From a virus (taxonomy: Duplodnaviria; Caudoviricetes): 55,374 bases of DNA. The notes below the pieces were generated by a model. The model worked only from the letters and a program-made list of their open reading frames with translations, was not told the DNA's origin and did not search any database. Both the position numbers and the translations under genes were made by a program. The stretch lies in the IMG/VR virus record IMGVR_UViG_3300005529_001081, positions 1 to 55,374 of that record; one strand, written 5' to 3'. Each line of letters opens with the position of its first letter. Position 1 is the stretch's first letter. Of this stretch, positions 3,795 through 38,802 are shown one piece after another.

Positions 3795-4096
3795 GCTGAG
3801 ACCTTTCCGGTGCGGAGTCCCGCCTCATGCGCGATGTGCTTTTGGGCGAGTTTCCGGATTTCTAGAATCCGCTCGGCCACGCCGCACAGGTACCGCAGAT
3901 TCACTTTGCCCTTCCGAATTTCCTCGAGGCTCATGAAGTGCGGCAGGATCGCGTCCGCGGTTCCATCCCATTGCGGCCGGGATACTTCGACGTAGCGCTC
4001 GAGCAGCGCGGCGAGCTCTTCGTCGAGGCAGAAAGCCGCGAACAGCGAGATCCGCTCCTGGATCATCAGCGTTTCGGCTTCGGTGAGCTTCTTCAT
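3791..4096 (-). CDS. Hypothetical protein
   Basis: 4-bp overlaps with both neighbours. Confidence 0.65.
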   Translation of the reverse strand: MKKLTEAETLMIQERISLFAAFCLDEELAALLERYVEVSRPQWDGTADAILPHFMSLEEIRKGKVNLRYLCGVAERILEIRKLAQKHIAHEAGLRTGKVSA

Positions 4097-5811
4097 CCGA
4101 ACAGCTCCGGAGCGGCGCGCACGCCGCCTTTTTCGGCGATCACCAGCTGGCGGGCGGCCAGGCGCTGAATGTAGGTATCGCGCGAGGACCGCTGGTATTC
4201 AGACAGCTCGCCGATGGTGTCGCGATCGACGAGCTCGCCTTGGGCGTCCGCCAGGATCTCGAGAATTCGCTTTTCCCCAGCCGGCAATCGATCGAGCCAA
4301 TGGGCCAGCAATTCGGATCCGGTGGGCAGCGGCTCGAAATCTCCCAGAGCGGCGATGCCCTCCTCGGTCGGCCGCGGGTCCGCGGACAGATCCACAAATC
4401 CTTTTGCAGCCAACCGCTGCAGATATGTATCGCGCGAGCTGCGCTTATAGCCGGTCAGAACGGTCAGCTGCGGCTTGGTGACCTGCCCGTGCTGCGCTAC
4501 CGCGGCGAGAATCTTGCGCTCGCCGGCCGGCAGCTCGGCTGTACCTTCGGAGCTATTACCAACCCGTATATTACGAGTTCGGGAAGGGGCGGGAGCCGCA
4601 GGCCTGGCCGGCCCCGGCTTGATGGGCGTACCTGTGCTTCGCTCGGGCCGTTGGCTCGCGCGCTGATACGCGGCCGCAGAGCGCGCGTTCGCGACCGCGT
4701 GCAGAATTTCCCGGCCGATGGTCTCGAGCCGCGCGAGCGCTTCCTCGGAGACCACCTGGACCTCGACCGGCTTCTCGATGATCTTCTCTATCGGAGTCTG
4801 CGGCCTGCGCTCGAGCTCGGCCTTGAGCCGCGCGGCCTCCTTCTGCGCATCGGCCAGCTTGCGGCGCAGCTCGCGCGGATCTTCAGCCTTCGCTTTCTCA
4901 ATGGTCTCGGCGAGGCGCTGCTCCAGGCGCGCCAAGTCGACCGCAGCCAGTTTCCGCGGCGCCGCGCGCGTGCCCCCGACCTCGGGAGTTGCCGAGGAGT
5001 CAAATGTTTCGAGCTTCCGGACCTTAACGCACTGAAACAGGTCAAGCCAGGCCGGGCTCCAGAACCAGGCTTTCTCGACCGCGAGCGATGCGAGCGAATT
5101 CATCATCAGCGCCTGCTTCTCCGGTGTCCCGTGCACTTTCACCCAGGCCTCGATCGCCGCGCGGTCCTGCGGCGCGATCGTGCGCTTGGCAATCAGCACT
5201 TCGATCTGCGTGAGCAGATCCTTGTTGATCGATGCCGACCGCTGCGTAATCATCGTGACCCCGATCCCGCGGGCCCGCCCTCGGCGAACCAGGTCTTCCA
5301 TCGCGCCCAGGAGTCGCGGGGCGAGATTCCCTACCGGCCGCTGCGGCGCCCAGGCGTCGGCCTCATCGATGAACAGGTGGAGTGCTTCGCGATTCAAACG
5401 GTAGAGCGATTCGGCGAAGCCGATCATGAACTGCGTCTGCTCGCCCTTGCGGAAGCGCGAGAGATCGATCACCACCGAAATCTTTTCTTCGACCAGGAAG
5501 CGCGCGATCTCCTCGCCGGCTTTCTCGGTTGCCTGGAGCGGCAGGTCGCCATAATCGCCGCCGAGAACGGTGATCGGCAGCCCAGGAGATTTGCCGGAAG
5601 CCGCCAGGCGCAGGCCCCACCAGTTGCCGATCGGATCCACAGCGCAGACGTGCGCATTGGCGCCGAGCATCTCCTCAGCCAGTACTTTGGCGGTGTAGGA
5701 TTTTCCGCCGCCGCGCTTCCCCAGAATCCCGAAGGTCTGCGTGACCGCCTCGAGCGGCAGAGTTAAGTCCGAAGCGATTTGTAGGGCATTCGGCGCCGCT
5801 GCCGGCATCAC
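4093..5811 (-). CDS. HerA/FtsK-like P-loop ATPase with coiled coil and two C-terminal winged-helix repeats
   Basis: Walker A GKRGGGKS, Walker B FIDEAD, GRARG, ITQR; duplicated LPAGE..IL...RSSRDTY.QRLAA. Confidence 0.85.
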   Translation of the reverse strand: MMPAAAPNALQIASDLTLPLEAVTQTFGILGKRGGGKSYTAKVLAEEMLGANAHVCAVDPIGNWWGLRLAASGKSPGLPITVLGGDYGDLPLQATEKAGEEIARFLVEEKISVVIDLSRFRKGEQTQFMIGFAESLYRLNREALHLFIDEADAWAPQRPVGNLAPRLLGAMEDLVRRGRARGIGVTMITQRSASINKDLLTQIEVLIAKRTIAPQDRAAIEAWVKVHGTPEKQALMMNSLASLAVEKAWFWSPAWLDLFQCVKVRKLETFDSSATPEVGGTRAAPRKLAAVDLARLEQRLAETIEKAKAEDPRELRRKLADAQKEAARLKAELERRPQTPIEKIIEKPVEVQVVSEEALARLETIGREILHAVANARSAAAYQRASQRPERSTGTPIKPGPARPAAPAPSRTRNIRVGNSSEGTAELPAGERKILAAVAQHGQVTKPQLTVLTGYKRSSRDTYLQRLAAKGFVDLSADPRPTEEGIAALGDFEPLPTGSELLAHWLDRLPAGEKRILEILADAQGELVDRDTIGELSEYQRSSRDTYIQRLAARQLVIAEKGGVRAAPELFG

Positions 5812-7263: not shown

Positions 7264-7776
7264 CTATGGCGACGCAGGTTGCTGCGCCGCAGGCTTACAG
7301 TCGTCGAGATACCGCCCGAGCCTGAATCCGAGATTCCAAGCCCATCGCACCAGCGGAGTGTCGAACGGATTTCGAGCGTGCTGATTCTTCCCGTCCCGCA
7401 GGCGCCGATAACACCGCAGACCTTCGCGTTCGGAGAAGGCCAAGAAATCCTGCTCGCTCATCCCGTCCGGACTCTGCTCCTGATCGCGCGACAGGAAGTG
7501 ATAATGGACGCACTTCTCGCACGCCAGGCGAAGCCTGAACCCGTCGGCCTGGGAGTCGCGCCCGTTGAAGCCATCAATGCACAGCTCGCACAGCATCGCG
7601 CCCCAAGCGTCATGGGTGGGCTCGCAGCGGAAAAATACCTGCGCGCCGCCGAGAACGTGTACGCAGATTGCTACGCCCGAGACAGACTGCCCCGGATGGA
7701 TCCGGCATTCGACCTTTGGATGGTTGCACGGCCGAACCTCCGGCAGCTCCAGAACTTTTTCCGTGGAGCGTTTCAT
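7264..7776 (-). CDS. Cys/His-rich hypothetical protein
   Basis: CxxH, CxH and CxxC motifs; overlaps the rep stop codon. Confidence 0.6.
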   Translation of the reverse strand: MKRSTEKVLELPEVRPCNHPKVECRIHPGQSVSGVAICVHVLGGAQVFFRCEPTHDAWGAMLCELCIDGFNGRDSQADGFRLRLACEKCVHYHFLSRDQEQSPDGMSEQDFLAFSEREGLRCYRRLRDGKNQHARNPFDTPLVRWAWNLGFRLGRYLDDCKPAAQQPASP

Positions 7777-8915
7777 GACCCCTCTTCCACGATGAACTCC
7801 ACGCGCTGCACGCCGATCCCGAGATGGACAGCGGCGGCACGGATCTGGCCCGTGAATATTTCGCGGATATAATCCGCGGTCACTTGCTGCGGAACGCGAA
7901 TTGTTAGCACTGCACGCTCGTGCGAGCTGAAGGCGGTTTGCAGCAACCAGTTGCTGTATTCGGTCTCCGAAACCATTCGCTTCAGTTCGGCGCGGATTCG
8001 TGACCAGGGGCTCGACGAATCCTCCGGCTCAGCTTTGAAATTCTTCTTCTCTGCCGTAGCTTCCTGCTTCGGAGAAGGCGAAAGCACTTGCACCGCGGCG
8101 GCATATCCGTCGCGCGCCTCTTTCGCCAGCTTCGGGAAAAGGCCGCTTTGAACGCTGTGCCGGTCACGCCGGACGCGATTTCGTACGACCCCCATGAAAT
8201 GTTCAATGGGAGTCGGCCCCAGCTCGGCGGCGACGTCGTTGAGTAGCTTCTCATCAGGGACTTTGCCGAGGCCAAGATGGACGAACACCGGCGTCAAGGC
8301 TTCCCTGAGCTTCGGAACCAACACCGATACTGGAGTATCGGGGGTGGCCTTTAACCTGATGGAAACACTCAGACCATCGTCAGATATGGACTCGCTTACC
8401 CGAACCGATTCAGGAGCGTCGTATGTCACCGGAAGCTCGCCGCGCTCGACGATCGAACGAGGCAGCGAAACAACTACCGGAGCGGATGGCGTCCGCGACT
8501 TGTATTCCTGGCGGTCTAACGTCTTGGGCTCGAGCTTCGGAGCGGAGCGAAATTTTTCCACCAGAGCACGATACTCAAGACTGCGGCCCACGTCTCCGCG
8601 GGATTGGATAAGACCCAGCTCGTCCTCGAGCTGCCCGAGCGCCTTACGAACGCCGATGGCCGAAGCCGCGCACTCCTCCGCCAGCTCTGTGATCTCAAGC
8701 CTGGCCCAGTCTTGGTGTCCATCCGGAGATCCCCAGGTGTTCCGGAGAATAATCCCGACGATTTTGTAAGGAAGTCCGTCCAACCGCGCAGGAAGGAAAT
8801 CGAAATAATCGTTGGGTATCGAGGACCATCCGCCGCGAACCTTTGGGGATCTGCCACCGTTTTCGGAGCCGGCCTGCACGACGGATTTGCGCGCGGGAGC
8901 TGGTGCGGCGGCCAT
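7773..8915 (-). CDS. Replication initiator: N-terminal winged helix plus C-terminal DnaA domain I
   Basis: GWSSIPNDYFD/ILRNTWG phage-Rep N-terminus; WSRIRAELKRMVSETEYSNWL...LTIRVP...YI matches DnaA_N; ATG overlaps the upstream TAA. Confidence 0.8.
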   Translation of the reverse strand: MAAAPAPARKSVVQAGSENGGRSPKVRGGWSSIPNDYFDFLPARLDGLPYKIVGIILRNTWGSPDGHQDWARLEITELAEECAASAIGVRKALGQLEDELGLIQSRGDVGRSLEYRALVEKFRSAPKLEPKTLDRQEYKSRTPSAPVVVSLPRSIVERGELPVTYDAPESVRVSESISDDGLSVSIRLKATPDTPVSVLVPKLREALTPVFVHLGLGKVPDEKLLNDVAAELGPTPIEHFMGVVRNRVRRDRHSVQSGLFPKLAKEARDGYAAAVQVLSPSPKQEATAEKKNFKAEPEDSSSPWSRIRAELKRMVSETEYSNWLLQTAFSSHERAVLTIRVPQQVTADYIREIFTGQIRAAAVHLGIGVQRVEFIVEEGS

Positions 8916-9160
8916 TAGCGTGTAGCTCCCGCGGCCGCAGTTCCGAGCGCGTTCGCCATCGCGGAAACCGCGGCTTTGTGATCGCGCTCCATCTGTGCTT
9001 CCAGCGCGACGCTCCAGTGCACCACGCCCCCAAAAACGCCGCTCGTGTCGGAGAAGCACAGATCGGTGATCTTCCGCCAGCCGCGATCCACAAGAAACTT
9101 TCCGATCGATTCGATGGTGATCTCTGGCGCCGAGCTCGGATGCACAAATCCCTCCTGCAC
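8915..9160 (-). CDS. Hypothetical protein
   Basis: TAATG coupling to rep. Confidence 0.55.
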   Translation of the reverse strand: MQEGFVHPSSAPEITIESIGKFLVDRGWRKITDLCFSDTSGVFGGVVHWSVALEAQMERDHKAAVSAMANALGTAAAGATR

Positions 9161-10833: not shown

Positions 10834-11037
10834 ATGCTGGAAATCCTGATCTTCATCCTGAACGTAGCGTTTTATTTCTGGTTCGGAAAAACCATGAACT
10901 CGATCAACGAGCACCTTGCTAAGATCGAGGCGGAACAGTCCAAACAAACTCAGCTTCTAGCGTCAGCCGCCAACGATCTTGACCTGATCCGCGAGCAGGC
11001 TGCCAGTTCCCGTTCCCGATCCGTACCTCCGTACTAG
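10834..11037 (+). CDS. Small membrane protein (possible superinfection exclusion)
   Basis: AAGGAG RBS; N-terminal TM plus coiled coil; directly downstream of the repressor gene. Confidence 0.55.
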   Translation: MLEILIFILNVAFYFWFGKTMNSINEHLAKIEAEQSKQTQLLASAANDLDLIREQAASSRSRSVPPY

Positions 11038-11091
11038 GCGGCATGAGGCATTTCCCAAGGAATATCGCATAAATCGACGGATTGTCGTTTA

Positions 11092-11355
11092 GTGGCCTTT
11101 GGCATTCAATGGTCGATTGTGAACCTTTTCGTTGTGAGCAGCAGAGCCAAGGTCACAGTCAGTCAGAGCGACCTCGAGAACATCGTCAGCCTCGAAGCAC
11201 AGATCACTCGCCTTTCAGAACTCAGGGACCAGCTCGCCGAGCACGTCATGCGACGGTTGTCGGGCGGGGCGGAAATCGAGATCGGCCCGCGCACCGCCGA
11301 ATGCCGCGATGAATATCACGGATACGTAAGGACGCAGCGCCTGATCGTCCGCTGA
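11092..11355 (+). CDS. Hypothetical coiled-coil protein
   Basis: ORF co-oriented with the repressor; start uncertain. Confidence 0.55.
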   Translation: MAFGIQWSIVNLFVVSSRAKVTVSQSDLENIVSLEAQITRLSELRDQLAEHVMRRLSGGAEIEIGPRTAECRDEYHGYVRTQRLIVR

Positions 11356-11384
11356 GGACGCAGGCCGCGGGGCCTACCTACCTG

Positions 11385-11505
11385 GATACTGGAGTATCGG
11401 GGTCACACTGATACTCCAGTATCGAAAAAGCGGTACCCGAGTATCGGCCTTTCGAGCGATTAAATATTAAGGAAGAACACAACACTTCTACGAGAGAAGT
11501 ATTAG
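11385..11505. repeat. Iteron-like GATACT-NN-AGTATC repeats plus AT-rich tract (candidate origin)
   Basis: Copies at 11385-11398, 11410-11423 and (degenerate) 11432-11445; 11385-11402 is identical to 8326-8343 inside rep. Confidence 0.6.
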
Positions 11506-11576
11506 TGGGTGAGTGCGAGCGGCGCCGGGAAACCACCCACCCACATCCGGTATTCCAGGAGACGCAAAGGTAAAGA

Positions 11577-12176
11577 TCACCATTGGCCGGCAAGTCGCTG
11601 GCCGAGTTCGTCACGCCGTTTGTTGCGCACCTTGAGGTAGCGCATCGTGCTCCGTATATCGCGATGACCAAGGTGATCCTGGACTTCCTCGGCCGATGCT
11701 CTTTCTCCCAGCAGCGTTCCGGCCGAATGACGTAGACAATGGAAGTGGCGTTTGGATTCCGGAAGGCCTGCACGAGCTCCGTAGTGCTTCATGAGCTGGT
11801 CAAGCCTGCTCCTCGATACCGGCCGCCCACCTTGGCGAGACACAAACAGCGGTCCCGGCCCTGTTCCGCGGATCGCGATCCATTTCCGCAGCGCGCGCAC
11901 CTCGCGATCCGTCAGTAAATATTCTCCGGAGTTGCCGCCCTTCAGTCTCTCGATGTAGAGCCTCCTGGCAGTCATCCGCAGGCCCGAAACTTTTAGGCGG
12001 CCTACCTCGCTCGCGCGCAGCCCGCGGTGGAACGCGACCTCAAAGATCGCCAGGTCGCGGGGAGAGTCAATCGAGCGAAACAGCGCATCGAGCTCGTCTT
12101 CGTTCAGGTACTGCAGGTCTCGCCCGGAGTACTTTCGCGCGCGGGAAACGGGCGCTTTCCGCTTCTGTAAGTCCAT
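11577..12176 (-). CDS. FimB/Xer-like tyrosine recombinase (catalytic domain only)
   Basis: HRGLRASEV, RLKG, HCLRHS, LGHRDIRSTMRY; 199 aa; no arm-binding domain. Confidence 0.9.
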   Translation of the reverse strand: MDLQKRKAPVSRARKYSGRDLQYLNEDELDALFRSIDSPRDLAIFEVAFHRGLRASEVGRLKVSGLRMTARRLYIERLKGGNSGEYLLTDREVRALRKWIAIRGTGPGPLFVSRQGGRPVSRSRLDQLMKHYGARAGLPESKRHFHCLRHSAGTLLGERASAEEVQDHLGHRDIRSTMRYLKVRNKRRDELGQRLAGQW

Positions 12177-12194
12177 TCATTTCAACATCGGTTC

Positions 12195-12224
12195 AGTTGG
12201 ACAGAATCTGCATTCTGTCCAACT
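12195..12224. repeat. Palindromic recombinase site candidate
   Basis: AGTTGGACAGAAT-CTGC-ATTCTGTCCAACT; extra half-sites at 12288-12302 and (degenerate, inverted) 13090-13103. Confidence 0.7.
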
Positions 12225-12308
12225 CGCGGGGTTTGCCGAACGTGTTTTGAACGGCTTAGCGGCGGCCGCGGAGGGCCTCCACTCGCAATTCTGTCCAACT
12301 CGTGGAAT

Positions 12309-13052
12309 TCAGCCCCGGGCGGCAGTGCGCCGGCTCCGAGAGGGCTTCTCCCCGGCACCCAGGCCGGGTAGGGTACTCCCGGCGGCAGCTACCTTGGAAG
12401 CGATCAGGCGCTCCACGCGCTGCTGCTGGAGGTCGGGATAGTCCTGGTAGCCGAAATCGCCCGCGGCTCGTTTAAGCGCGCGCATCGCGGCCGTGATCTC
12501 CGATTCAGACGCTGCCTGTTCGTCGGTCCTGAACTCGTCGAGCGATCGCAGCTCATGGGAGAAGAAAAGCGTGTGAGCCACGATCCCCAATTTCCCGGCC
12601 CGGAAGATCATTGGACGCTCGCGGGAATAGAGCCTCATCAGCGCTATGCCCGCAAGCGACGTCCTACGGAGCGCACCGAAAAGAGCCGCGTAAGGTAGCT
12701 CGTCTTGCGCGGGCGCCACGTAGTAGGACGATTCAAACTGGGTCGGATCCATCTGCTCGAGCGGCACGAAACGAAGCTCGATCGAGTCGCCTGCGGCCGG
12801 AGCCAGGCTCTCGATTTCTTCTTCGGTGAGAGTAGCGAACTTGCCTTTCTCGTATTCGTAGCCTTTCACCAGCTCGGTGCGAGCGATCGGCTTGTCCTCG
12901 CCCTGGCAGTACAAGACCTGCTTCACGCGGGACAGGTCTGTGGCGTGGAGCTGATTGAAAGACGGATTCTCTCCCCGCGCTCCCGTCAGAATCCTGACTG
13001 CGACCGATCGGCCGCCGTAGACCAGTTGTCCCTTCCAGACCGGTGTGCCCAT
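12309..13052 (-). CDS. ku: Prokaryotic Ku DNA-end-binding protein
   Basis: VWKG, SFNQLH, RVKQ, ELVKGYEYEKG and SYYVAP motifs. Confidence 0.92.
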   Translation of the reverse strand: MGTPVWKGQLVYGGRSVAVRILTGARGENPSFNQLHATDLSRVKQVLYCQGEDKPIARTELVKGYEYEKGKFATLTEEEIESLAPAAGDSIELRFVPLEQMDPTQFESSYYVAPAQDELPYAALFGALRRTSLAGIALMRLYSRERPMIFRAGKLGIVAHTLFFSHELRSLDEFRTDEQAASESEITAAMRALKRAAGDFGYQDYPDLQQQRVERLIASKVAAAGSTLPGLGAGEKPSRSRRTAARG

Positions 13053-13194
13053 ACCAGCCCTTTCGGCTCACGAGCAAATCCCTTCACTTGAGCTGGACAA
13101 AACGCTCTGACGCGGTTGGAGAAGATCCTTTTTCCTCCGAGATATTTAGGCCTCGAATTCGGGGCCATCGTGTCGGATTCCGCTGCCCGCTCCG

Positions 13195-13316
13195 TATAAT
13201 CGGGTGCAAGTCAAAAGACGCAGATTCGAAGCACGTAGTTCTCCCACCTCTGTACCGGCGCCGGCCCTGCTAACCAGCGGGACCGGCGCTCCCGCTTCAT
13301 TCCGCTCTTTTCTCTT
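13195..13316 (+). promoter_or_regulatory. Candidate late promoter (-10 TATAAT) followed by a hairpin and pyrimidine tract
   Basis: TATAAT at 13195-13200; GCGCCGG...CCGGCGC stem at 13258-13289; weak -35. Confidence 0.4.
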
Positions 13317-13360
13317 CGCGTCGGCGCGGTTCCGGTCGACAAAACAAGGCGGGAGCAACC

Positions 13361-13918
13361 TTGGAATCCTCAACGTCGGCGCCAATCGGCCTGAGGCTAT
13401 GGCCGTTCTTCGTTCAAGCCAGCAAGAACAACCCACCGGACACGGATCCGTATCCGGCGCAATCGCGGGCGTGGACGGCCGACCAGGCGCGCGCATTGGC
13501 TTCGCGCAGCTGCTCAGGCTGCTGCGGATCCGGCCTTCGCGCCATCGCTGGCGACATCACTCCATGCGGCTGCGTTCTGCGCCGCATTTTCAATCATTGC
13601 TTTTCTCGTTACCTCGAGTGCATCGAACGGCCGCGCCGATTCGGGCCCAAGAACGAGGACTTCATATCCGATTTTGAGCTCGTTGGACTGCGTGCGCTCA
13701 GCAACGACAAGGAGCGGCAGCTTTTCCGGCTCATTTTCATTTCCGGCGTGGATCATCGGAGGAGCGCCGAGATTCTGGGCCTGGATAACGCCAGGTTCCG
13801 CGGGTGCCTTCGCCGGGTGCAAGAAAAAGCCGGGCGAGCCTTCCGCGAAATCAGACCATACGCTCTGTATCCCACCGGTTCGTATTTTCAGGCGCCCACG
13901 CGGAGGCCCGCGGCCTGA
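13361..13918 (+). CDS. Zn-finger plus C-terminal HTH regulator (possible Q-like late activator)
   Basis: CSGCCG...CGC; C-terminal sigma4-like HTH (HRRSAEILGLDNARF); first gene of the rightward operon. Confidence 0.6.
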   Translation: MESSTSAPIGLRLWPFFVQASKNNPPDTDPYPAQSRAWTADQARALASRSCSGCCGSGLRAIAGDITPCGCVLRRIFNHCFSRYLECIERPRRFGPKNEDFISDFELVGLRALSNDKERQLFRLIFISGVDHRRSAEILGLDNARFRGCLRRVQEKAGRAFREIRPYALYPTGSYFQAPTRRPAA

Positions 13919-14256
13919 TGATTTGGCCGACGCAAGGCCAGTGGCCCTGGCCCTCCCCTCCGCCGTCGCCGTTCGACGTAATCGCGCGGCAAGAGCGGCT
14001 TGAGCTCATAGAGCTCTGCCTGATCGAGATAGGCCGCAAGCACGCCTCGGTTCTCCGGATGCGGTACTTCCGTGATCTGTCGTTCAAGGACATGGCTCGG
14101 GCGTTGGCGACATCTGAGGATGCCGTCGGGCAGATGCACGGGCGAGTCCTTGCAAGAGTGCGCGAGCTGCTGCAGACAGCCGGCCGCGAAGAAGGCCGTC
14201 TGGCTCTCAATCGCCCAGGCCATCGCGGCGTGAAACGAATCAAGGACGTCCTCTGA
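13918..14256 (+). CDS. Sigma-70 region-4-only protein (FliA-like)
   Basis: VLRMRYFRDLSFKDMARALATSEDAVGQMHGRVLARVRELL; TGATG coupling to the upstream gene. Confidence 0.75.
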   Translation: MIWPTQGQWPWPSPPPSPFDVIARQERLELIELCLIEIGRKHASVLRMRYFRDLSFKDMARALATSEDAVGQMHGRVLARVRELLQTAGREEGRLALNRPGHRGVKRIKDVL

Positions 14257-16191: not shown

Positions 16192-16926
16192 GTGCAATCA
16201 AAAGTCAGAAAGCGAAATCGCCTGGCCGAAGAACACCTCTGGCTGGCGACATCCATCGCGAATCAGATCTCGGAAACGCTTCCCGTCCACGTGGATTTCG
16301 ATGACTTGCGCCAAGCCGGTCTACTCGGCCTACTGGATGCCGCGGACAGGTATTCGCCCGATCGCGGCGTGAAGTTCTCCAGCTTTGCGAAGTTCCGGAT
16401 CCGTGGGGCGATTCTTGACTACCTCAGGGACCTGGATTGGGCGAGCCGGGACATGCGGCGCCAGCAGAAAGAACTGGCCTCGGTATACAACGACCTCGCC
16501 AACCGCCTCCAGCGCGAACCGGACCTGGCCGAACTCGCGGGGGAGTTAGGGATCGATGTGGAAAAGCTCGGCCAGAGAATCAAGGCGAGTATGCTCGAGC
16601 ACGGTCTGGTCTCCGCATCTTTCCGCACTGGCGGCGACGGGGACGACCTTCCGCCTTCCGATTTTGCGGCGCCTGGCGCGACCAGGCCCGACTCCGTGGC
16701 CTCTCAAAACGAACTTCGGGGATTCCTGGACAAGGCGTTGAACACGCTTCCAGAACGGTATCGCAGAGTCATTTCTCTCTATCACTTTCGTGAGCTCACG
16801 ATGCGCCAGGTCGGGGATGTTCTAGGCGTCAATGAAAGCCGGGTCTCGCAGATGCACCAAATAGCGCTCAAGCGAATGCGAGCAGTCCTCCTGGAAGAGG
16901 GCATTCCTTCCGCGCAGGCTTTCTAA
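16192..16926 (+). CDS. FliA/WhiG-family (sigma-28) RNA polymerase sigma factor
   Basis: DDLRQAGLLGLLDAADRY, FAKFRIRGAILDYLRDLDWASR, VNESRVSQMH. Confidence 0.92.
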   Translation: MQSKVRKRNRLAEEHLWLATSIANQISETLPVHVDFDDLRQAGLLGLLDAADRYSPDRGVKFSSFAKFRIRGAILDYLRDLDWASRDMRRQQKELASVYNDLANRLQREPDLAELAGELGIDVEKLGQRIKASMLEHGLVSASFRTGGDGDDLPPSDFAAPGATRPDSVASQNELRGFLDKALNTLPERYRRVISLYHFRELTMRQVGDVLGVNESRVSQMHQIALKRMRAVLLEEGIPSAQAF

Positions 16927-16933
16927 GCGACCG

Positions 16934-17386
16934 GTGGCTTCGAACAAGCACGCGCCTCTCGGACTCCGGGCAGCGGCTAGCAAACTCAAAATCAGCCACG
17001 TCGCGCTGCTGAAGGCGGTCGAGTCGGGCAGGATTAAGCGGCGTGAGGATGGCAAATTCGACCTGGAAGCCTGTCGGCGAGAGCTGGCAGCCAACAGCAA
17101 TCCGAAGAAACAGAAATCGGCCCGCGCGCAGCAGCACAAGAAGCCGCTCAGTCCGGATGACACCTACAACGAGCTCTGCCGGCGCCGCGAAGCCGTAAAG
17201 CTTGAGAAGGATGAGTTAGACCTGGCGCGTAAGAAGGGCGAGTTGGTTCCGATCGGCGAGGTAAACGCATTCATTTCCGGAATGATCATTCGGGCGCGCG
17301 ATCGCTTGCTCGCAATCGAATGCGATGAGCGCACCGGCCACGAAATACGCGGCGCTCTCCGAGACCTCGCTCAGTACGTGGGCTAG
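16934..17386 (+). CDS. Terminase small subunit (Nu1-like)
   Basis: N-terminal HTH, coiled coil, ELDLARKKGELVP; directly upstream of the large subunit. Confidence 0.8.
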   Translation: MASNKHAPLGLRAAASKLKISHVALLKAVESGRIKRREDGKFDLEACRRELAANSNPKKQKSARAQQHKKPLSPDDTYNELCRRREAVKLEKDELDLARKKGELVPIGEVNAFISGMIIRARDRLLAIECDERTGHEIRGALRDLAQYVG

Positions 17387-19283
17387 CCTCTGGCTTCCGC
17401 CGGAACGGCTGCCGCTGTCGCAGTGGGCCGAGCAGAATTTGATTCTGTCCTCGGAATACTCCGCCAGCATCGGTCCAATAAAGCTGTACGGCTGGCAGAA
17501 GGAGCCACTCGATAGCTTCACGGATCCGCGCGTAGAAACGACCGTGCTGATGTGTTCGACGCAGATGCTCAAGACTCTGTTGATCCAGGCAGCCCTCGCC
17601 TACTCCATCAGCCAGCAGCCAGGGCCGACGCTTATCCTCGAGCCCAAGGACGCCGACGCCAAATCGTTCTCTAAAGAACGCCTGGCGCCCATGATCCGGG
17701 ACAATCCCTCTCTGAGCGTCGTCGCGGAATCGAAGGGGCGGTCCAGTTCAAACACGATCCAGGAAAAAACCTTCCCTGGCGGCACGTTGGCCTTGGTCGG
17801 AGCAATCGCGCCCGGCAATCTGGCCCGGAGATCGATCCGGTACCTCCTGTGCGACGAGATCGACAAGTACCCGGCCAGCGCAGGCGCCGAAGGCGATCCG
17901 ATCGACCTAGCCTGGGAACGGACAGTAACTTTCGGTGCGCGCCGTAAACGGGTGCTGGCCTGTTCCCCGACCGGCCTCGGGCGAAGCCGCATCGGCAAGG
18001 CTTATGAGGCGAGTGACCGGCGCCGGCCATGGATCCCGTGTCCCAAATGCGGAGAGTTCCAGGTCCTCAAATGGAGCCAGGTCGTTTTCGATCCTGTCGG
18101 CTACAAATGCGCAGCCTGTGGGGCCGTCTGGGCAGACGAGGAACGCTGGGCCGCTTGCGAGCGAACGGAATGGCGCCCGGAAGGCCCTTTTCGCGGCACG
18201 GCCGGATTCTGGATCTCGCATCTCTATTCGCCCTGGAAGCGAATGGCGGCAATGGTCGCTGACTACCTCGACCGGAAGGAAGACCGGCAGCGATACAAAG
18301 TTTTCGTCAACACGACGCTGGCCGAGCTCTGGGAAGAGCAGGGCGATACCCCAGATGACGAGATTCTGCTGGGCCGGAGAGAAGAGTACCCAGCAAATGA
18401 TCAGGCCGTTGTGCCAACGCGCGGTCTTTTCCTTACCTGCGCCGTCGACGTTCAGGAAAACCCTCCTCGGCTCGAGTACGAGGTCGTCGCCTGGGGCAGA
18501 AACCGGGAGAACTGGTCCATTGCCTACGGAGCCGTACAGGCTACGGCGTCAAACGGCCAGGCGCTTCCGGTAACGAGCCCCGAGCTCTGGGAAAAGCTCG
18601 ATCGCGAGGTGCTTCAGCGCGAATGGCAGCACGAGAGCGGCCAGAGCCTCCCCATTCTGGCAATGGGGATTGATACAGGTTCGAGGCCACAGCCGGTTTA
18701 TGAGTTCGCCAAACGTCACGCTCAGCCTGTATATTCCGCTGCCGGGTTGAAAGTGGCGGCGCCGCGTACCGTTGTCCCGCTCAAGGGCGTCAAGGACGAG
18801 ATCCGGGTCATCTCCAAGATCTCCAAAGAGGACGCGGCAAGGAAACGGCAGAATGTTCGAATCGTGAGCATCGGGACGCACCGGTGCAAGCAGGAACTTT
18901 ACGACGATCTCAGAGATTCCCGCCCGAGGCCTGACGGATCCGCCTCTCCTCGGTGTCACCATTTTCCGCAGGCCTATGGCAGCCAGTATTTCGAAGGGCT
19001 GTGCTCAGAGAAGCGGGTGCTGAAAGCCAGCGGAGACGTCTCCTGGCAGAAGGTGCCCGGCCGCCGCAACGAGCCCTTGGACCTTAAAGTTTACAACCGC
19101 GCATGCTATGCAATCGTCGGCGGTGACAGGTTTAACGAGGCTCAGTGGGCCAGTTTCGAGGAAGCCGTGGCTCCGGCCGTTGCTGAGCCGGAGTCTGAAC
19201 CCGAGCCTTCCGAACGGCTTGACGCGGAGCCGGAGACAGGGGGTTGGCTGGGCAGCAGAACGCGCAACTGGCTTCGCCGTTAG
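17325..19283 (+). CDS. Terminase large subunit, lambda GpA family
   Basis: STQMLKT Walker A variant, LLCDEIDKY, SPT, CPKC/CAAC, AVDVQ, RNEPLD. Confidence 0.95.
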   Translation: MSAPATKYAALSETSLSTWASLWLPPERLPLSQWAEQNLILSSEYSASIGPIKLYGWQKEPLDSFTDPRVETTVLMCSTQMLKTLLIQAALAYSISQQPGPTLILEPKDADAKSFSKERLAPMIRDNPSLSVVAESKGRSSSNTIQEKTFPGGTLALVGAIAPGNLARRSIRYLLCDEIDKYPASAGAEGDPIDLAWERTVTFGARRKRVLACSPTGLGRSRIGKAYEASDRRRPWIPCPKCGEFQVLKWSQVVFDPVGYKCAACGAVWADEERWAACERTEWRPEGPFRGTAGFWISHLYSPWKRMAAMVADYLDRKEDRQRYKVFVNTTLAELWEEQGDTPDDEILLGRREEYPANDQAVVPTRGLFLTCAVDVQENPPRLEYEVVAWGRNRENWSIAYGAVQATASNGQALPVTSPELWEKLDREVLQREWQHESGQSLPILAMGIDTGSRPQPVYEFAKRHAQPVYSAAGLKVAAPRTVVPLKGVKDEIRVISKISKEDAARKRQNVRIVSIGTHRCKQELYDDLRDSRPRPDGSASPRCHHFPQAYGSQYFEGLCSEKRVLKASGDVSWQKVPGRRNEPLDLKVYNRACYAIVGGDRFNEAQWASFEEAVAPAVAEPESEPEPSERLDAEPETGGWLGSRTRNWLRR

Positions 19284-34233: not shown

Positions 34234-37200
34234 ATGCCGAACCAGGTCGAGACGATTGAGCTGACGGTCGACGACCGCCCGGCAGTTCAGGGAGCTGATC
34301 GGGCCAACGCCAGGCTTGAGCAGTTCGAAAAGACCGGCGCGCGCGCGGCTCAGTCCACATCCAAGGCCTTCGAAGACGTCGGCGCGACTGTTGTGCGTTT
34401 CGCTGACCGGTCTGCGTCCGGCATGGAGCGTAGCCTGGCATCACTGCAGAGGCGGCTTGCCCAATTCAGCAGTCCCGCCGAAAGGCTTGCTTCGGAGCGG
34501 GTCGCGGCTCTTCCGCGGTTCGCCGGAGACGAAGAAAGGCTGAGACGAGCGACCGAGCTGTATGACCAGCTGGCGGCCGCCCAGAAGCGGGCGGATAATA
34601 CCGCACTGCTTGAGCGTGCCCAACGTGCCTCGCGGGCTGCGGAGGGAGCAACGAGCGCCTTTCAAGTCGCGCTTTCTCGATCGAATGCAGAGCGTCAGCG
34701 AGAGGCGAAACTCGCCGAACAGGAATCTCGCGCTATAGAAGGCCAAGTGCGGCAGATCGAGCGAAGCAGGGCGCTGTCCGACGCCGGAGCGGTGGATCGC
34801 CTCCGGCTGCAGCGCAAGTTTGCGCTCGAGGATCTCGGACCCAAGGCCTCTCCGGAACAAGTGGCCAGGGTGCAACGAGCGTTTCAGAGCGCAATTGAGG
34901 CCGAGGAAAAACTAGGCGAGGCGGCCGGCTTGAAGGGGTTCGGTGACAGGCTTCGGGGATTCGTGGAGGATCCGCTCGGATCCGCGCGCAATCTATTACA
35001 GAGCGTTTTCGGCGGAATCACAGCCGGCGGCCTGGCGGCTGCCGCGGGCTTGGCGGTGCTGGCGACGGCCGCTGAAAAAGCTTTCGGCATCGTCGCGGAC
35101 GCCGGAAAGAAAGCGGAAACCAGCCTGAATCTGGCTGAGCGGCTGGGTACCACGGTTGCGGAAGCTCAGACACTGTCGGCGGTAGCCCGCATCACCTCGG
35201 TAGACATCGGCAGCGTGGAATCGTCGGTCAAGAAGCTTTCATCGGCGCTCGCCGAAGGCGGAAACGAAGGCAAGCAGGGCGCAGATGCTCTCAAATCGAT
35301 TGGAGTGTTCGCCCGCGACTCTCAGGGGAATCTGAAGGGATTCTATCAGCTCTTCGGCCAGATCGCTGACGGGATCGACAAGCTTCCGGACCACGCCCAG
35401 AAGGTTAGCGTTCTGGAGAATCTGTTCGGCAAGGGCGCGGTATCGATGCTGCCGATGATCCGCAATTTCCGGGAGCTCGAGGAGGAAGCAAGAAGGCTGG
35501 GGCTGACCCTCGACGAGGATCTCGTCCGCAGACTGGGCAAGGCCGATGACACCATCGACAAGCTCGGCTTGGCCTGGGACGCGCTCAAGGCGCGCTTCGC
35601 CGGCCGCCTGGAGCCGATCGTAATTCCGCTCGTTATCGAGGCCACAAACATCCTCGGGAAGAGCCCCACGGAAATTCTGAAGAACGAGTTCGACAACACA
35701 ATTGGGAACCCGTTTCTGAATCCAATCGCGCTGGCGATCCAGCACATTAAAGCCGATCTCGCGGACGTAAAACCAAAGGCAGTCTCAGCCACCGCGGCCG
35801 TGGCGACGCTGTCCAAATCCGAGGTTAATTTCGAGGACCAGCGGCGAGCACAGGTTCTGCGAGCCCAATTTGAGGCGCGCAGCACACTCGATTCCTTGAA
35901 GCGCGAGATCGATGACAAGGACAAGGACCTCCGCGAGGCCCAGGCGAAACTGGATCAGTTACCGAAGGACGCCAGTTCCGCTGTGGTCGCTTCCACGATC
36001 CGCACGATCGAGGCTCTGCGTTCCGAGGACGACGCGCTTAAGCTCAAGGCGAAAGTCCTTTCAGAGCTGCCCGATCGCCAGAAGCAGGCGCGCGACGCGG
36101 CGCTCGAGGCCGACGCCGCGGAGCTCAGCGGAATTTCGAAAATACTCGCCGAGCGGCAACGGCAGATAGACCAGATTTCCACGTTCAGCGAGCATGGCCA
36201 GACCGTACGAATCGACCTTGCAAAACAAGCCCCCGACATTCTCGCGAGCATCGAGGCGTCGACTCAGGCCAAAATCCGCGCCGAGCAGCGCAAAACCCAG
36301 CAGGAGCTGGCCGAGCTCAGCCAGAAAACCGCCGAATCCGTGGCTGCCGGGGAGAGGGCCACTCTTGGGGAGCGCGAGGCCGCCGAGGAGCGATTTAACG
36401 AAAGGCGCCTGGCGAGTGGCGCCATCTCTCTTCGGGAGCTCGAGAACGCCCGCCTTCAGCTCCACGTTGAAACTTTGAATAAGATCGCCGAACTGGACCG
36501 CCGCCAGGCCGCCGCCCAATTCGATCTTCAGATTGGGCAGCTGAAAAAGCAGCGCGATCTGGCGACGGCGCCGGAAGACAAACAGACGTTCAGCGCACGG
36601 ATCCGGGAGCTCGAGGCCCAACGCGAGCAGGCCATCAAAGGAGTAAACGACCGGGTTTCAGCCGCCTCGGCAGCGAGCGCCGAGGATCTGGACAATCTGC
36701 GGATCCGTCGCGATCGCGAATTCTCCGATCGCACGAAGTCCCTGCAATTCGACAATATCGAGGCGATTGGGCAAGCCCAACAGCGGGCGCTTGAGCACGC
36801 CCGGGATTCCCAGCTCGAGGCGCTTGCACTGGTGGACACCCAGACCCTGAGCGGCAAGCTGAGCGTCGAAGCTCGCAAATTCGAGATTGAATCGCAGTTT
36901 CTACGCCTGTCGGAAACGCTCCAGCGGGAATCGCTCGATCGCCGCCTCAAACGTGAGCTGGATCTCCTCGATATACAGGCCCGAGCAGAAGGGATTTCAG
37001 ACGAAGAGGCCGCGAAACGGCGCCTGGAGATTGAGGAGCAGTTCCAGATCCAGAGACAGGGCATCGCCGAAGATGCGAACGCTGCGATCGCGGCGAGCGC
37101 CACGCGGGCGGCCGCAGCACAGCTCGAAGCCATCAGGTCCCAGACGCGCTCGGTTTTCGACACTTTCAAGCGGGAATCCGAAGGCGTGTTCGATGCGTTG

Positions 37201-38802
37201 CTGACCAAGTCAAAGAACATCTTCCAGGCCATCGGAGACTCGCTCAAGAATGCTCTACTGACCGCCATCAAGGACGCCGTGTCGTCTCGCGTCGCCGCGA
37301 GCCTGACTCAGATCTTCACAGGGCAACGCGTCAGGCTCCAAACGGAGAACACCGGCGGAATTCTGGGGGGCATCCGGCAGGCGCTGGGCATCGGAGCTAC
37401 CCCGGTTATCACTCCATCCCAGCAGCTGCGGATCCAGACCAAGCTGGATCAGCCCAATCACCTCGGGGATGTACTGCTTGCGGGCGGAGCCGTACCGGTG
37501 GTGGTGGCAAACCCCATACAATTCGCGCGCTCGGGCTCCGGCTTGCCGTTCGCTATCGGCGGCGCCACGGCCGCCCTGGCTGCTGCGCTAGGTCTTGGCG
37601 CGCTCGCGGCGCCGACCCAGGCGGCGAGTTCTGTTCCTGCAGGCGTCGTGCAGTCGACGATCAATTTCGGATCCGGAGAGAGCTTCACGGGAGCACCGCA
37701 GGTCTTCGGAGCAGGGAGTGTTCTCGGCGGACCAGGCGGGACCCCTGGCTTCAGCGGCCCGGTGACCGGCGGAACATTCCCGGGGGTTCCTTCGACTCCG
37801 CCGTTCGTCCCAGCTCAAACCGCACAGCACGCGGGCATTCTTGGCTCACTGAAGGACAGCCTCTCTGGCTTGAAGGGAATCCTGAGCGGCCTGGGGAATA
37901 TTGGTCTTCCGGGCGTCTCATCGCTGCCGGTCGGAATCGGGGGCGATACGGCGGCGCAGGCGGCGGGAATTCCCGGTCTGGGGTCGATAGCGCCGTTAAA
38001 GAGCGGAAGCTTCCTCGGCAACATCTTTGGGGGCAGCCACGCCATCGGCGGAACTCTGGGCGGCGCGCTGCTTGCCGGAGGAGGCCTGCTATTTGCCCAC
38101 GGCTTGCAGCAGGGCGGCGTCTCCGGCCTGCTCCAAACCACCGCCGGCGGGGCGGCGATCGGTCTGAAGTTCGGAGGCCCGATCGGAGGACTCATCGGGG
38201 CGGGAGTGGGAGCCGTAGCTGGCTTGTTCGGGCTGTTCCGCCAAAGCGCCGAGGAGAAGATTCAGAAGAAGGTCAAAGAGATCTACAAGATCGATATCGA
38301 CAAGAAGTTCGCCAAAGACCCGCTGTTCGGGATCATCAAGCAGAATTTCGGGGGGAATATCGACGTCGGCGTGCGGTCGCCCCAGGTTCGCGAGCTGCTC
38401 GAGCTCTACGCCATGAGCACCGGCCAAAACTTTGCCGGCATCGTCCCGCGTGTCCAGGCGGTGACTTTCGCGAACCAGGGCGGCCAATTGACGCGGCTCC
38501 CCAACATCGTCAATGGCCAGGCTCAGCCATTCACCGGCGGTTCAGCGATCGGAAACGGCGTGGTCTCGGCCGTGAGCGCCGGATCGGTGCAATCACCAGC
38601 GCCAGTGATTGCTGGCGCTACCGCAATCACCCTGCAGCTCGACCCGGCGGCGACGAAAGCGGTACTTGAGGGCCGCGCGGCGGAGGCCTTGAAGAACAAT
38701 CCGCGCGCTGTTTCGCAAGCCGCGGTCTCCGGTCAGCGCGCCTCTTCCGGCCGGCGCGAAAGCGCCGTGCTCGCGCTTCAACCAAATCGAATCACTGCCT
38801 GA
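34234..38802 (+). CDS. Tape measure protein
   Basis: 1522 aa; Ala-rich helical and coiled-coil; LFGKG motif; Gly-rich hydrophobic C-terminal part. Confidence 0.92.
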   Translation: MPNQVETIELTVDDRPAVQGADRANARLEQFEKTGARAAQSTSKAFEDVGATVVRFADRSASGMERSLASLQRRLAQFSSPAERLASERVAALPRFAGDEERLRRATELYDQLAAAQKRADNTALLERAQRASRAAEGATSAFQVALSRSNAERQREAKLAEQESRAIEGQVRQIERSRALSDAGAVDRLRLQRKFALEDLGPKASPEQVARVQRAFQSAIEAEEKLGEAAGLKGFGDRLRGFVEDPLGSARNLLQSVFGGITAGGLAAAAGLAVLATAAEKAFGIVADAGKKAETSLNLAERLGTTVAEAQTLSAVARITSVDIGSVESSVKKLSSALAEGGNEGKQGADALKSIGVFARDSQGNLKGFYQLFGQIADGIDKLPDHAQKVSVLENLFGKGAVSMLPMIRNFRELEEEARRLGLTLDEDLVRRLGKADDTIDKLGLAWDALKARFAGRLEPIVIPLVIEATNILGKSPTEILKNEFDNTIGNPFLNPIALAIQHIKADLADVKPKAVSATAAVATLSKSEVNFEDQRRAQVLRAQFEARSTLDSLKREIDDKDKDLREAQAKLDQLPKDASSAVVASTIRTIEALRSEDDALKLKAKVLSELPDRQKQARDAALEADAAELSGISKILAERQRQIDQISTFSEHGQTVRIDLAKQAPDILASIEASTQAKIRAEQRKTQQELAELSQKTAESVAAGERATLGEREAAEERFNERRLASGAISLRELENARLQLHVETLNKIAELDRRQAAAQFDLQIGQLKKQRDLATAPEDKQTFSARIRELEAQREQAIKGVNDRVSAASAASAEDLDNLRIRRDREFSDRTKSLQFDNIEAIGQAQQRALEHARDSQLEALALVDTQTLSGKLSVEARKFEIESQFLRLSETLQRESLDRRLKRELDLLDIQARAEGISDEEAAKRRLEIEEQFQIQRQGIAEDANAAIAASATRAAAAQLEAIRSQTRSVFDTFKRESEGVFDALLTKSKNIFQAIGDSLKNALLTAIKDAVSSRVAASLTQIFTGQRVRLQTENTGGILGGIRQALGIGATPVITPSQQLRIQTKLDQPNHLGDVLLAGGAVPVVVANPIQFARSGSGLPFAIGGATAALAAALGLGALAAPTQAASSVPAGVVQSTINFGSGESFTGAPQVFGAGSVLGGPGGTPGFSGPVTGGTFPGVPSTPPFVPAQTAQHAGILGSLKDSLSGLKGILSGLGNIGLPGVSSLPVGIGGDTAAQAAGIPGLGSIAPLKSGSFLGNIFGGSHAIGGTLGGALLAGGGLLFAHGLQQGGVSGLLQTTAGGAAIGLKFGGPIGGLIGAGVGAVAGLFGLFRQSAEEKIQKKVKEIYKIDIDKKFAKDPLFGIIKQNFGGNIDVGVRSPQVRELLELYAMSTGQNFAGIVPRVQAVTFANQGGQLTRLPNIVNGQAQPFTGGSAIGNGVVSAVSAGSVQSPAPVIAGATAITLQLDPAATKAVLEGRAAEALKNNPRAVSQAAVSGQRASSGRRESAVLALQPNRITA

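Follow-up and report, generated by a model that had tools for sequence, protein, structure and literature searches.

The DNA considered here, IMG/VR record IMGVR_UViG_3300005529_001081 (55,374 bases; hereafter "the window", by which we mean this whole stretch), is an entire provirus record, about 90% complete, of a prophage whose host is a soil acidobacterium. It encodes a small tyrosine recombinase of 199 amino acids (aa), and beside the gene for this enzyme lies a site with three copies of one arm, two of them forming a palindromic core and the third standing off as an accessory half-site. Being conserved, covarying and single-copy, this three-arm site is very probably the recombinase's own target. 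As to its function, we see roughly even chances that the 199-aa recombinase makes up, together with the 111-bp stretch 12194-12305, a self-contained module that resolves or circularises copies of the phage genome, probably with autoregulation; this coincides with one of two alternatives offered in a first-pass annotation of the window, namely dimer resolution with autoregulation, the mechanism being one that we infer.

Judged by its sequence, the enzyme is a tyrosine recombinase made up of the catalytic domain only and endowed with a complete predicted active site. Its sole domain is PF00589 (residues 23-185, E 2.8e-29, 102.5 bits against a cut-off of 27.1), and the catalytic residues are R51, K79, H146, R149, H171 and Y180. 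When the 120 best homologues (181-287 aa, median 207) were aligned, R51 was found in 118, K79 in 120, H146 in 120, H171 in 119 and Y180 in 119, and position 149 was R in 92 and K in 28; this conservation of the active site argues that catalysis, not merely binding, is under selection. The N-terminal core-binding domain is absent: the Pfam domain begins after just 22 residues, the open reading frame (ORF) cannot be extended upstream, and in an AlphaFold model (pLDDT 88.3, pTM 0.81) residues 1-20 have low pLDDT and the first helix does not begin before residue 26. The model superposes on the catalytic domains alone of XerA (TMq 0.78), XerH, Cre and lambda Int with a Foldseek probability of 1.00. 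The best structural matches are XerA and XerH, Cre is matched over its catalytic domain only (TMq 0.64-0.69), and against full-length targets TMt is at most 0.57, the aligned part being the C-terminal portion of the target chains.

The first-pass description of a catalytic-only, FimB/Xer-like enzyme of this length is borne out by PF00589 as the only domain, by FimB and XerA as the nearest NCBIfam models and by the structural matches. The scores of these models nevertheless fall far below their cut-offs, both for the FimB/FimE invertases (NF007370, 96.7 vs 221; NF007371, 70 vs 222) and for the Xer proteins (XerA, 93.5 vs 220; XerC, 68.4 vs 335; XerD, 61.5 vs 330; XerS, 53.5 vs 267); NF007370, the best NCBIfam match, covers profile positions 11-178 of 200. 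The closest named relatives are FimB/FimE-type invertases from plasmid records, with 38-39% identity over 80-89% of the protein. More distant homologues occur in varied settings: one of 195 aa (35% identical) adjoins HicAB, ParA and RepA on a 16.6-kb plasmid, one that is 32% identical stands directly behind a Tn3-family transposase, and a 35%-identical homologue in Escherichia phage GER2 is annotated as an integrase and lies about 390 bp from an annotated attL. By eye, no clear module was seen upstream of the distant homologues of a Pukyongiella plasmid, phage GER2 and a Sphingobium plasmid. We note as a caution for annotation that genes automatically named FimB, XerD or integrase in this family are probably none of these.

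The palindrome at 12195-12224, AGTTGGACAGAAT-CTGC-ATTCTGTCCAACT, is a perfect 13-4-13 element with 100% complementary arms, and it ends 18 nucleotides (nt) before the recombinase ATG. The first-pass annotation had given it as 11-6-11 at 12196-12223; the place was right and the parse is a valid one within a longer element, and the 30-bp palindrome may also be read as 11-8-11 or 12-6-12. We infer that the core 12194-12225, with its asymmetric spacer, is the site at which the recombinase binds and crosses over. The half-site that had also been picked out, at 12288-12302, is real and extends to 12305: the 18 nt match arm 12212-12229 at 17/18 positions, 76 nt away start to start, are inverted relative to the gene-proximal arm, and end 3 nt before the stop codon of the adjacent gene, ku. 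The 13-mer arm occurs at these three positions only in the 55,374-base record, and its reversed control has 0 matches. The A/T-rich motif TTTGAACGGCTTA between accessory copy and core, a predicted bend site, departs from WATCAANNNNTTR, which we take to be the IHF consensus, by 2 mismatches.

The claim that this site belongs to the recombinase is carried above all by its recurrence in relatives, of which 63 loci on genome contigs and 80 on viral contigs were fetched by means of a 22-homologue alignment. The first two relatives compared (57-58% identity) each have a 13-4-13-like palindrome whose sequence, AACTGCCCAcTGT-GATT-ACAcTGGGCAGTT, is not that of the window, with a half-site about 76 nt upstream. 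For a scripted scan of 69 non-redundant relatives (40-73% identity, mostly phages of Acidobacteria), 600 nt upstream of the gene were searched for a palindrome of 26-34 bp whose 9-nt outer arms have at most one mismatch, and for its gene-distal arm to recur 70-81 nt beyond, away from the gene, with no more than 2 of 10 positions differing. The first-pass annotation was prepared to fall if homologues lacked a conserved palindrome upstream; palindrome plus accessory copy are in fact present in 37/69 relatives, as compared to 6/1380 shuffled sequences and 1/65 downstream control regions; the accessory offset is 74-77 nt in 36 of these 37 modules. Arm sequences vary by locus (for instance GTTGGACAG, AATTGGTGAG, AACTGCCCA and ACCGGACA), and the recombinase gene is the sole gene conserved beside the site in the loci compared.

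Eight further non-redundant loci carry the module in a displaced position (see the table), bringing the total to about 45/69; for these, whole loci were scanned on both strands, which yields many GC-rich chance matches, and fit to the family consensus was judged by the author. Since the module is also found away from the 5' end of the gene, it is more than a promoter element. A partly degenerate module follows the recombinase gene of locus L121 and precedes its terminase genes. In L071, a Ku-linked relative of 73% identity, the module is present as AACCGGTCAAAA-TGCTCC-TTTTGACCGCTT at 2671-2700, and at 2595 its accessory copy falls within the 3' end of the ku gene of that locus. Here an 85-aa ORF of unknown function (phrog_2293, 2735-2992) intervenes between the core and the recombinase gene, and 2 nt after the stop of this ORF comes the ATG of the recombinase gene.

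Aligned on the core centre, 36 modules give a 32-bp consensus of 14-4-14 form with mirrored conserved positions (G-16, A-15, G-11, C-8, A-7 and T-3 on one side; A+2, T+6, G+7, C+10 and T+14 on the other). The inner arm is conserved, as CAGAAT or CAGTCT, the outer 8-9 nt are variable, and it is the outer portion that the accessory copy retains; some relatives have 8-12-8 forms in which the inner arms are non-complementary and the width of 28-32 bp is kept. A conserved A/T-rich motif between accessory copy and core defines three subgroups, that of the window having TAAGTnnTTGA. Read on the other strand, this motif fits the IHF consensus: in 16/17 loci of the window subgroup the best IHF-like match has a constant strand and a constant offset of -49 relative to the core centre, differs at 0-2 positions and is perfect in 4; in the other two subgroups there is no IHF-like match, and different conserved A-rich motifs are found. 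The inner motif has a single orientation in 36/36 aligned modules.

The full site is single-copy in the window, in three host genomes (G001, 5.2 Mb; G002, 4.3 Mb; G027, 6.1 Mb) and in provirus G020. Near-matches on three contigs of G002 (C68, C3, C26) and one of G001 (C22) were set aside, having neither a recombinase gene nor a full site; on C68 of G002 (locus L174, about 1545-1610), two direct copies of AATTGGTGAAAA lie about 50 nt apart with no recombinase gene nearby, a pair that resembles the accessory site of the same host's prophage module (L016). The window-type pattern GTTGGACAG-N10-CTGTCCAAC was searched for in 596 Gb of genomes and IMG/VR, and was found in 22 stretches of genome contigs and 1 of viral contigs. 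Only two of these, L153 and L173 (on the contigs of L029 and L085), adjoin a recombinase gene; the other 21 were rejected as hairpin-like palindromes in unrelated phyla, near the approximately 9 estimated by chance. The pattern search thus revealed no free-standing partner site in related hosts.

How might such a module work? Three recombinase protomers would bind the three arm copies, and the accessory protomer would be folded back onto the core by bending of the DNA at the A/T-rich motif, which is IHF-like in the window subgroup. Strand exchange would then take place across the central 4-8 bp between two directly repeated sites, which would arise on a genome dimer, on a concatemer or on terminally redundant ends, and monomer circles would result. 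This would be the same type of reaction as that of TnpI at the Tn4430 IRS, Cre at loxP and XerS at difSL. As 18 nt separate the core from the start codon, occupancy of the core probably also throttles expression of the recombinase.

By its site, the module is most readily likened to the Tn4430 IRS, described in the excerpt of PMC2847244 as a 116-bp site with two 14-bp inverted motifs, a 4-bp asymmetric spacer and a 6-bp cleavage stagger, whose accessory motifs share 9 bp and give resolution selectivity. Relative to that description, the module likewise has a 14-4-14 core with an asymmetric spacer (13/14 symmetric in the window; 14-4-14 also in the family consensus), a single recombinase with several motif copies, accessory sequence on one side that shares the outer ~9 bp, and a whole site of about 110-116 bp. 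Where the Tn4430 IRS as described there has two tandem DR motifs, the present site has one accessory half-site 76 nt off and a bend-like motif in between. The likeness drawn is between the sites; as to the enzymes, TnpI has 284 aa, whereas the present one has 199 and no core-binding domain. The annotated ORFs of the window include no transposase, and the search for an rve domain was negative, the Pfam model for the Tn3 transposase not having been run.

Other systems share single traits. XerS/difSL and XerH/difH likewise combine a single recombinase gene and its site in one module (excerpt of PMC5357621), the site being, as given there, near-palindromic and of about 28-31 bp; XerA/dif belongs with them. 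Xer/dif sites are built of two ~11-bp arms around a centre of 6-11 bp. Xer proteins, by contrast, have 280-360 aa including a core-binding domain and act at the chromosome terminus, XerS and XerH depending on FtsK, whereas a phage carries the element described here, which includes an accessory half-site. Cre, which resolves P1 dimers (excerpt of PMC8138268), offers a phage precedent. Like Cre/loxP, the present pair comprises a phage-encoded homomeric recombinase, identical inverted arms, an asymmetric spacer and one site per genome; unlike it, loxP is 13-8-13 without an accessory site, and Cre has 343 aa with an N-terminal domain. Cre also cyclises terminally redundant P1 DNA.

Several observations weigh against a resolving or circularising module. 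At the position of the second catalytic arginine, R149, 28/120 homologues have lysine, the other five residues being retained. The palindrome by itself, present in 58/69 relatives, 602/1380 shuffles and 48/65 downstream controls, does not discriminate, and does so only when combined with the accessory copy. By the criteria used, 24/69 relatives have no module in their flanks, with degenerate versions among the remaining loci (L073, L015, L076, L021, L024 and L108). The window's IHF-like match is equalled, at 2 mismatches, by 4.5% of shuffles. A scan of 11000-13500 found no sigma-70-like promoter, so autoregulation is proposed from position only. Two studies with 4 DNA runs between them gave Logan contigs in which no recombination joints or indels were found; such contigs reveal the dominant form only and not rare variants, and one of the studies is possibly the source of the window. 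In 37 loci the site occupies the exact position of an operator. Finally, the window phage has a 500-aa integrase and a phrog_15 large terminase, presumably of the lambda-like cohesive-end type, so that it is not obvious what it would need a resolvase or cyclase for.

The main alternative is that the module is an attP and the small recombinase a second integrase, or in other phages the sole one, with the palindrome as the core and the accessory copy and bend motif as a minimal arm; the site would be unused in this provirus because the 500-aa integrase had carried out the integration. We regard this as unlikely, if worth serious consideration. The layout of core, bend and arm is indeed attP-like, the GER2 homologue is annotated as an integrase near attL, and in many relatives a contig or provirus end is close by. 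Among 25 whole viral records, those at least 90% complete (n=11) include 6 with the small recombinase only, that is without another PF00589 gene (1 of the 6 has a serine recombinase and none an rve domain), and 5 with a second, larger one. The reading is weakened by the finding of the site, intact and internal, in four provirus-classed records: the window, G022 (L078), G010 (L088) and G020 (L118), the last of which is 97% complete and has no other recombinase that we could find. Unlike a lambda-type attP, then, the site is not split in these records, and the protein has neither an arm-binding nor a core-binding domain. No second copy flanks any element, no attB-like copy was found in the 3 host genomes, and 52 loci have no tRNA gene within 3 kb. 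Mu-like transposition was considered as the integration route of the recombinase-only proviruses and rejected, the rve transposase domain being found in 0/25 records; a serine recombinase is present in 1/25 and ParB_N in 6/25.

Alternatively, the arms might be an operator and nothing else, bound by the recombinase or by another phage protein that represses transcription arriving from ku, the true recombination target being elsewhere or lost. Three spaced copies of a motif do resemble an operator array, the core stands just before the start codon in 37 loci, and the contigs examined hold no recombination product. We nonetheless think this improbable, since the 8 displaced modules, which lie downstream, on the opposite strand or 1.4-2.8 kb off, and the conserved active site both weaken it; no other conserved repeat accompanies the gene, and the asymmetric 4-nt spacer and fixed width of 28-32 bp fit recombination cores. 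Far less probable still is an RNA hairpin that acts as a terminator or processing signal in the interval from ku to the recombinase gene, with arm covariation serving only to keep the pairing. The transcript of the palindrome would form a perfect 13-bp stem, and RNA folding gives z = -4.3 for a 161-nt region, but no T-run follows the palindrome and the terminator scan calls none there. A hairpin would also leave unexplained an accessory copy kept at a fixed distance (74-77 nt) and covarying with the arms, the constant width of the 8-12-8 forms and the modules on the opposite strand.

The other alternative of the first-pass annotation was a switch that inverts or controls ku, with half-sites bracketing that gene. 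The far half-site was present as written (13090-13103, inverted, 11/14), but it carries no meaning that we can discern: it is one of six such matches, each differing at 3 of 14 positions, that turn up elsewhere in the window, the 11-mer with at most 2 mismatches has 12 matches vs 9.8 expected (24/100 shuffles reach 12), and no such site lies upstream of ku in Ku-linked relative L071. Being at chance level and absent from L071, it does not bracket ku, and the near half-site, by the ku stop codon, belongs to the recombinase module as its accessory site. A FimB/FimE-like inversion might instead flip the 80-bp segment between 12207 and 12288. The ~200-aa catalytic-only architecture is that of FimB/FimE, the nearest named relatives and the best NCBIfam model are of this type, and the accessory copy and the gene-proximal arm face opposite ways. 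We consider inversion of either segment highly improbable, and reject that of ku. FimB/FimE act on a segment between two inverted sites, whereas here there is one full site, the accessory copy is a lone half-site without a partner arm, and there are no orientation variants, the inner motif pointing the same way in 36/36 modules. NF007370 scores 96.7 against its cut-off of 221, a contig from an independent study covers 11948-12369 unchanged, no contig joint was seen, and Ku is rarely adjacent.

Returning to resolution or circularisation, we may ask how far it extends. It is possible, though we would not count on it, that the relatives constitute a large undescribed family of minimal phage tyrosine recombinases (about 190-230 aa) that cyclise or monomerise phage genomes as these enter the cell or replicate, with the accessory-bound protomer, bent back by the DNA, replacing the core-binding domain. 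Each member would have its own 32-bp target and one accessory half-site at a fixed 76 bp. On the same tentative footing, this would amount to Cre/loxP-like cyclisation in phages other than P1, located among genome-end functions and often near terminase genes and assembly termini. A search of titles and abstracts, supplements not being covered, found no published description of a recombinase with such a three-arm module. If the 32-bp core recombined alone, or with the accessory copy and a host bending protein, the pair would be among the smallest self-sufficient combinations of recombinase and target. The relatives would offer dozens of natural enzyme-site pairs with differing arms, which might serve as starting points for orthogonal genome-engineering tools. 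If true, the reading would also show how a recombinase without a core-binding domain assembles a synapse, and many phages of soil Acidobacteria would possess, next to genes for Ku- or Gam-type end-binding proteins, a module for resolution or cyclisation.

With regard to Ku itself, the window encodes a bacterial-type protein (TIGR02772, 169 bits vs a cut-off of 150) whose gene lies directly upstream of the recombinase gene and in the same direction. Its nearest relatives are short phage-type Ku proteins (239-265 aa, 57-67% identity), followed by Ku of Bryobacteraceae (46-49%). In a tblastn search of the 145 fetched relatives' loci, the window Ku matched only L071, L072 and L008, at 41% identity, and these are the only loci in which ku adjoins the recombinase gene; the pairing is a lineage-specific synteny confined to the closest sub-lineage and does not define the module. 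Contigs of two further lengths (3,617 and 53,872 bases) recur among the matches of both proteins, which suggests, from the lengths alone, that recombinase and Ku occur together there as well. We take Ku to be a separate phage function, which would need a host ligase, and which has only the handling of phage genome ends as a theme in common with the recombinase. No ATP-dependent ligase domain was found in the record. In the Corndog and Omega mycobacteriophages, phage Ku and host LigD circularise genomes (excerpt of PMC12848934, citing Pitcher 2006); the window resembles these phages, as described there, in having a phage-encoded bacterial-type Ku without a phage ligase, a likeness known here from genes alone.

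A wider view of the neighbours comes from the 25 whole viral records, of which 2 have Ku, 7 a Mu Gam-like protein (scored via phrog_253, PF07352 having matched nowhere, controls included) and 16 neither. In 8/9 of the records that encode one, the Ku or Gam-like gene and the small recombinase are no more than 5 kb apart, the exception being G020 at 39 kb. Other recurrent neighbours in 82 loci are terminase-small-subunit-like genes (18), large terminase (9) and exonuclease (12). In 7/8 records with direct terminal repeats (127 bp in G023 and 120 bp in G025, for instance) the recombinase lies within 6.5 kb of the record end. G023 (locus L178), a complete 31.8-kb genome, has a Mu Gam-like end-protection protein at 86-580, 2 kb from the small recombinase, and a second tyrosine recombinase of 325 aa just across the record ends.

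Table. Features of the window and positions of displaced modules in relatives.
Feature	Position	Strand	Basis or remark
Integrase, 500 aa	1123-2625	minus	PHROG scan
Small tyrosine recombinase, 199 aa, catalytic domain only	11577-12176	minus	PF00589
Predicted core site: two inverted 14-nt arms, asymmetric 4-nt spacer CTGC	12194-12225	.	13/14 symmetric
A/T-rich motif TTTGAACGGCTTA, predicted bend site	12246-12258	plus	midway between accessory and core
Accessory half-site	12288-12305	plus	direct repeat of gene-distal core arm
Bacterial-type Ku, 247 aa	12309-13052	minus	PF02735, TIGR02772
Degenerate inverted half-site, judged chance	13090-13103	plus	3 mismatches in 14
Small terminase	16934-17386	plus	PHROG scan
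Large terminase	17325-19283	plus	phrog_15
Tape measure	34234-38802	plus	PHROG scan
Displaced module, L081, L027, L118, L090	just downstream of gene	same strand	
Displaced module, L088/L025	1.4 kb downstream of gene		
Displaced module, L092, L019	downstream	opposite strand	
Displaced module, L033	2.8 kb upstream of gene		

In protein searches, the relatives of both recombinase and Ku came mainly from metagenome genomes of Bryobacteraceae, Solibacteraceae and Terriglobia. The recombinase-Ku locus of the window is placed between a left arm on the minus strand, which encodes the 500-aa integrase, an HNH protein, a HerA-like ATPase and a protein with a DnaA_N domain, and a structural module on the plus strand (about 16.9-48.9 kb in PHROG scans) that includes the terminases, portal, protease, major head and tape measure genes. 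The 500-aa integrase gene is not at the record edge: its stop overlaps the start of the next ORF (725-1126), beyond which come an SPFH/Band-7 protein (180-728) and an ORF reaching position 1, and with these ORFs past the integrase the prophage end is undefined inside the record. A direct repeat, 848-877 vs 12078-12107, was taken as chance, lying in an unrelated ORF. The HerA/DUF87-type ATPase (572 aa, 4093-5811) has a weak MarR-like stretch, and its nearest PHROG, phrog_2666, is named "terminase large subunit", the true terminase being at 17325-19283. Two sigma-70-like factors are encoded just upstream of the terminase genes, one with region 4 only (13804-14256) and one with regions 2-3-4 (16192-16926), a pair which suggests phage-encoded control of late transcription.

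We considered whether positions 1-11.4 kb might be a separate element with the small recombinase as its end-of-prophage integrase, and rejected this: phage regulatory genes stand on both sides, and a motif found at 8326 is shared with 11385-11445. This motif, a 14-bp palindrome of GATACTGGAGTATC type, is present in three copies (11385-11398, 11410-11423 and 11432-11445, at spacings of 25 and 22 nt) that lie past the 3' end of the recombinase gene, in the interval before the convergent ORF 11092-11355. The fourth exact copy, at 8326-8339, falls within ORF 7773-9059, whose product has a DnaA_N-like domain. Over the window there are 11 matches to the motif vs 2.3 expected, and the copies look like operators or iterons of a phage immunity or replication region.

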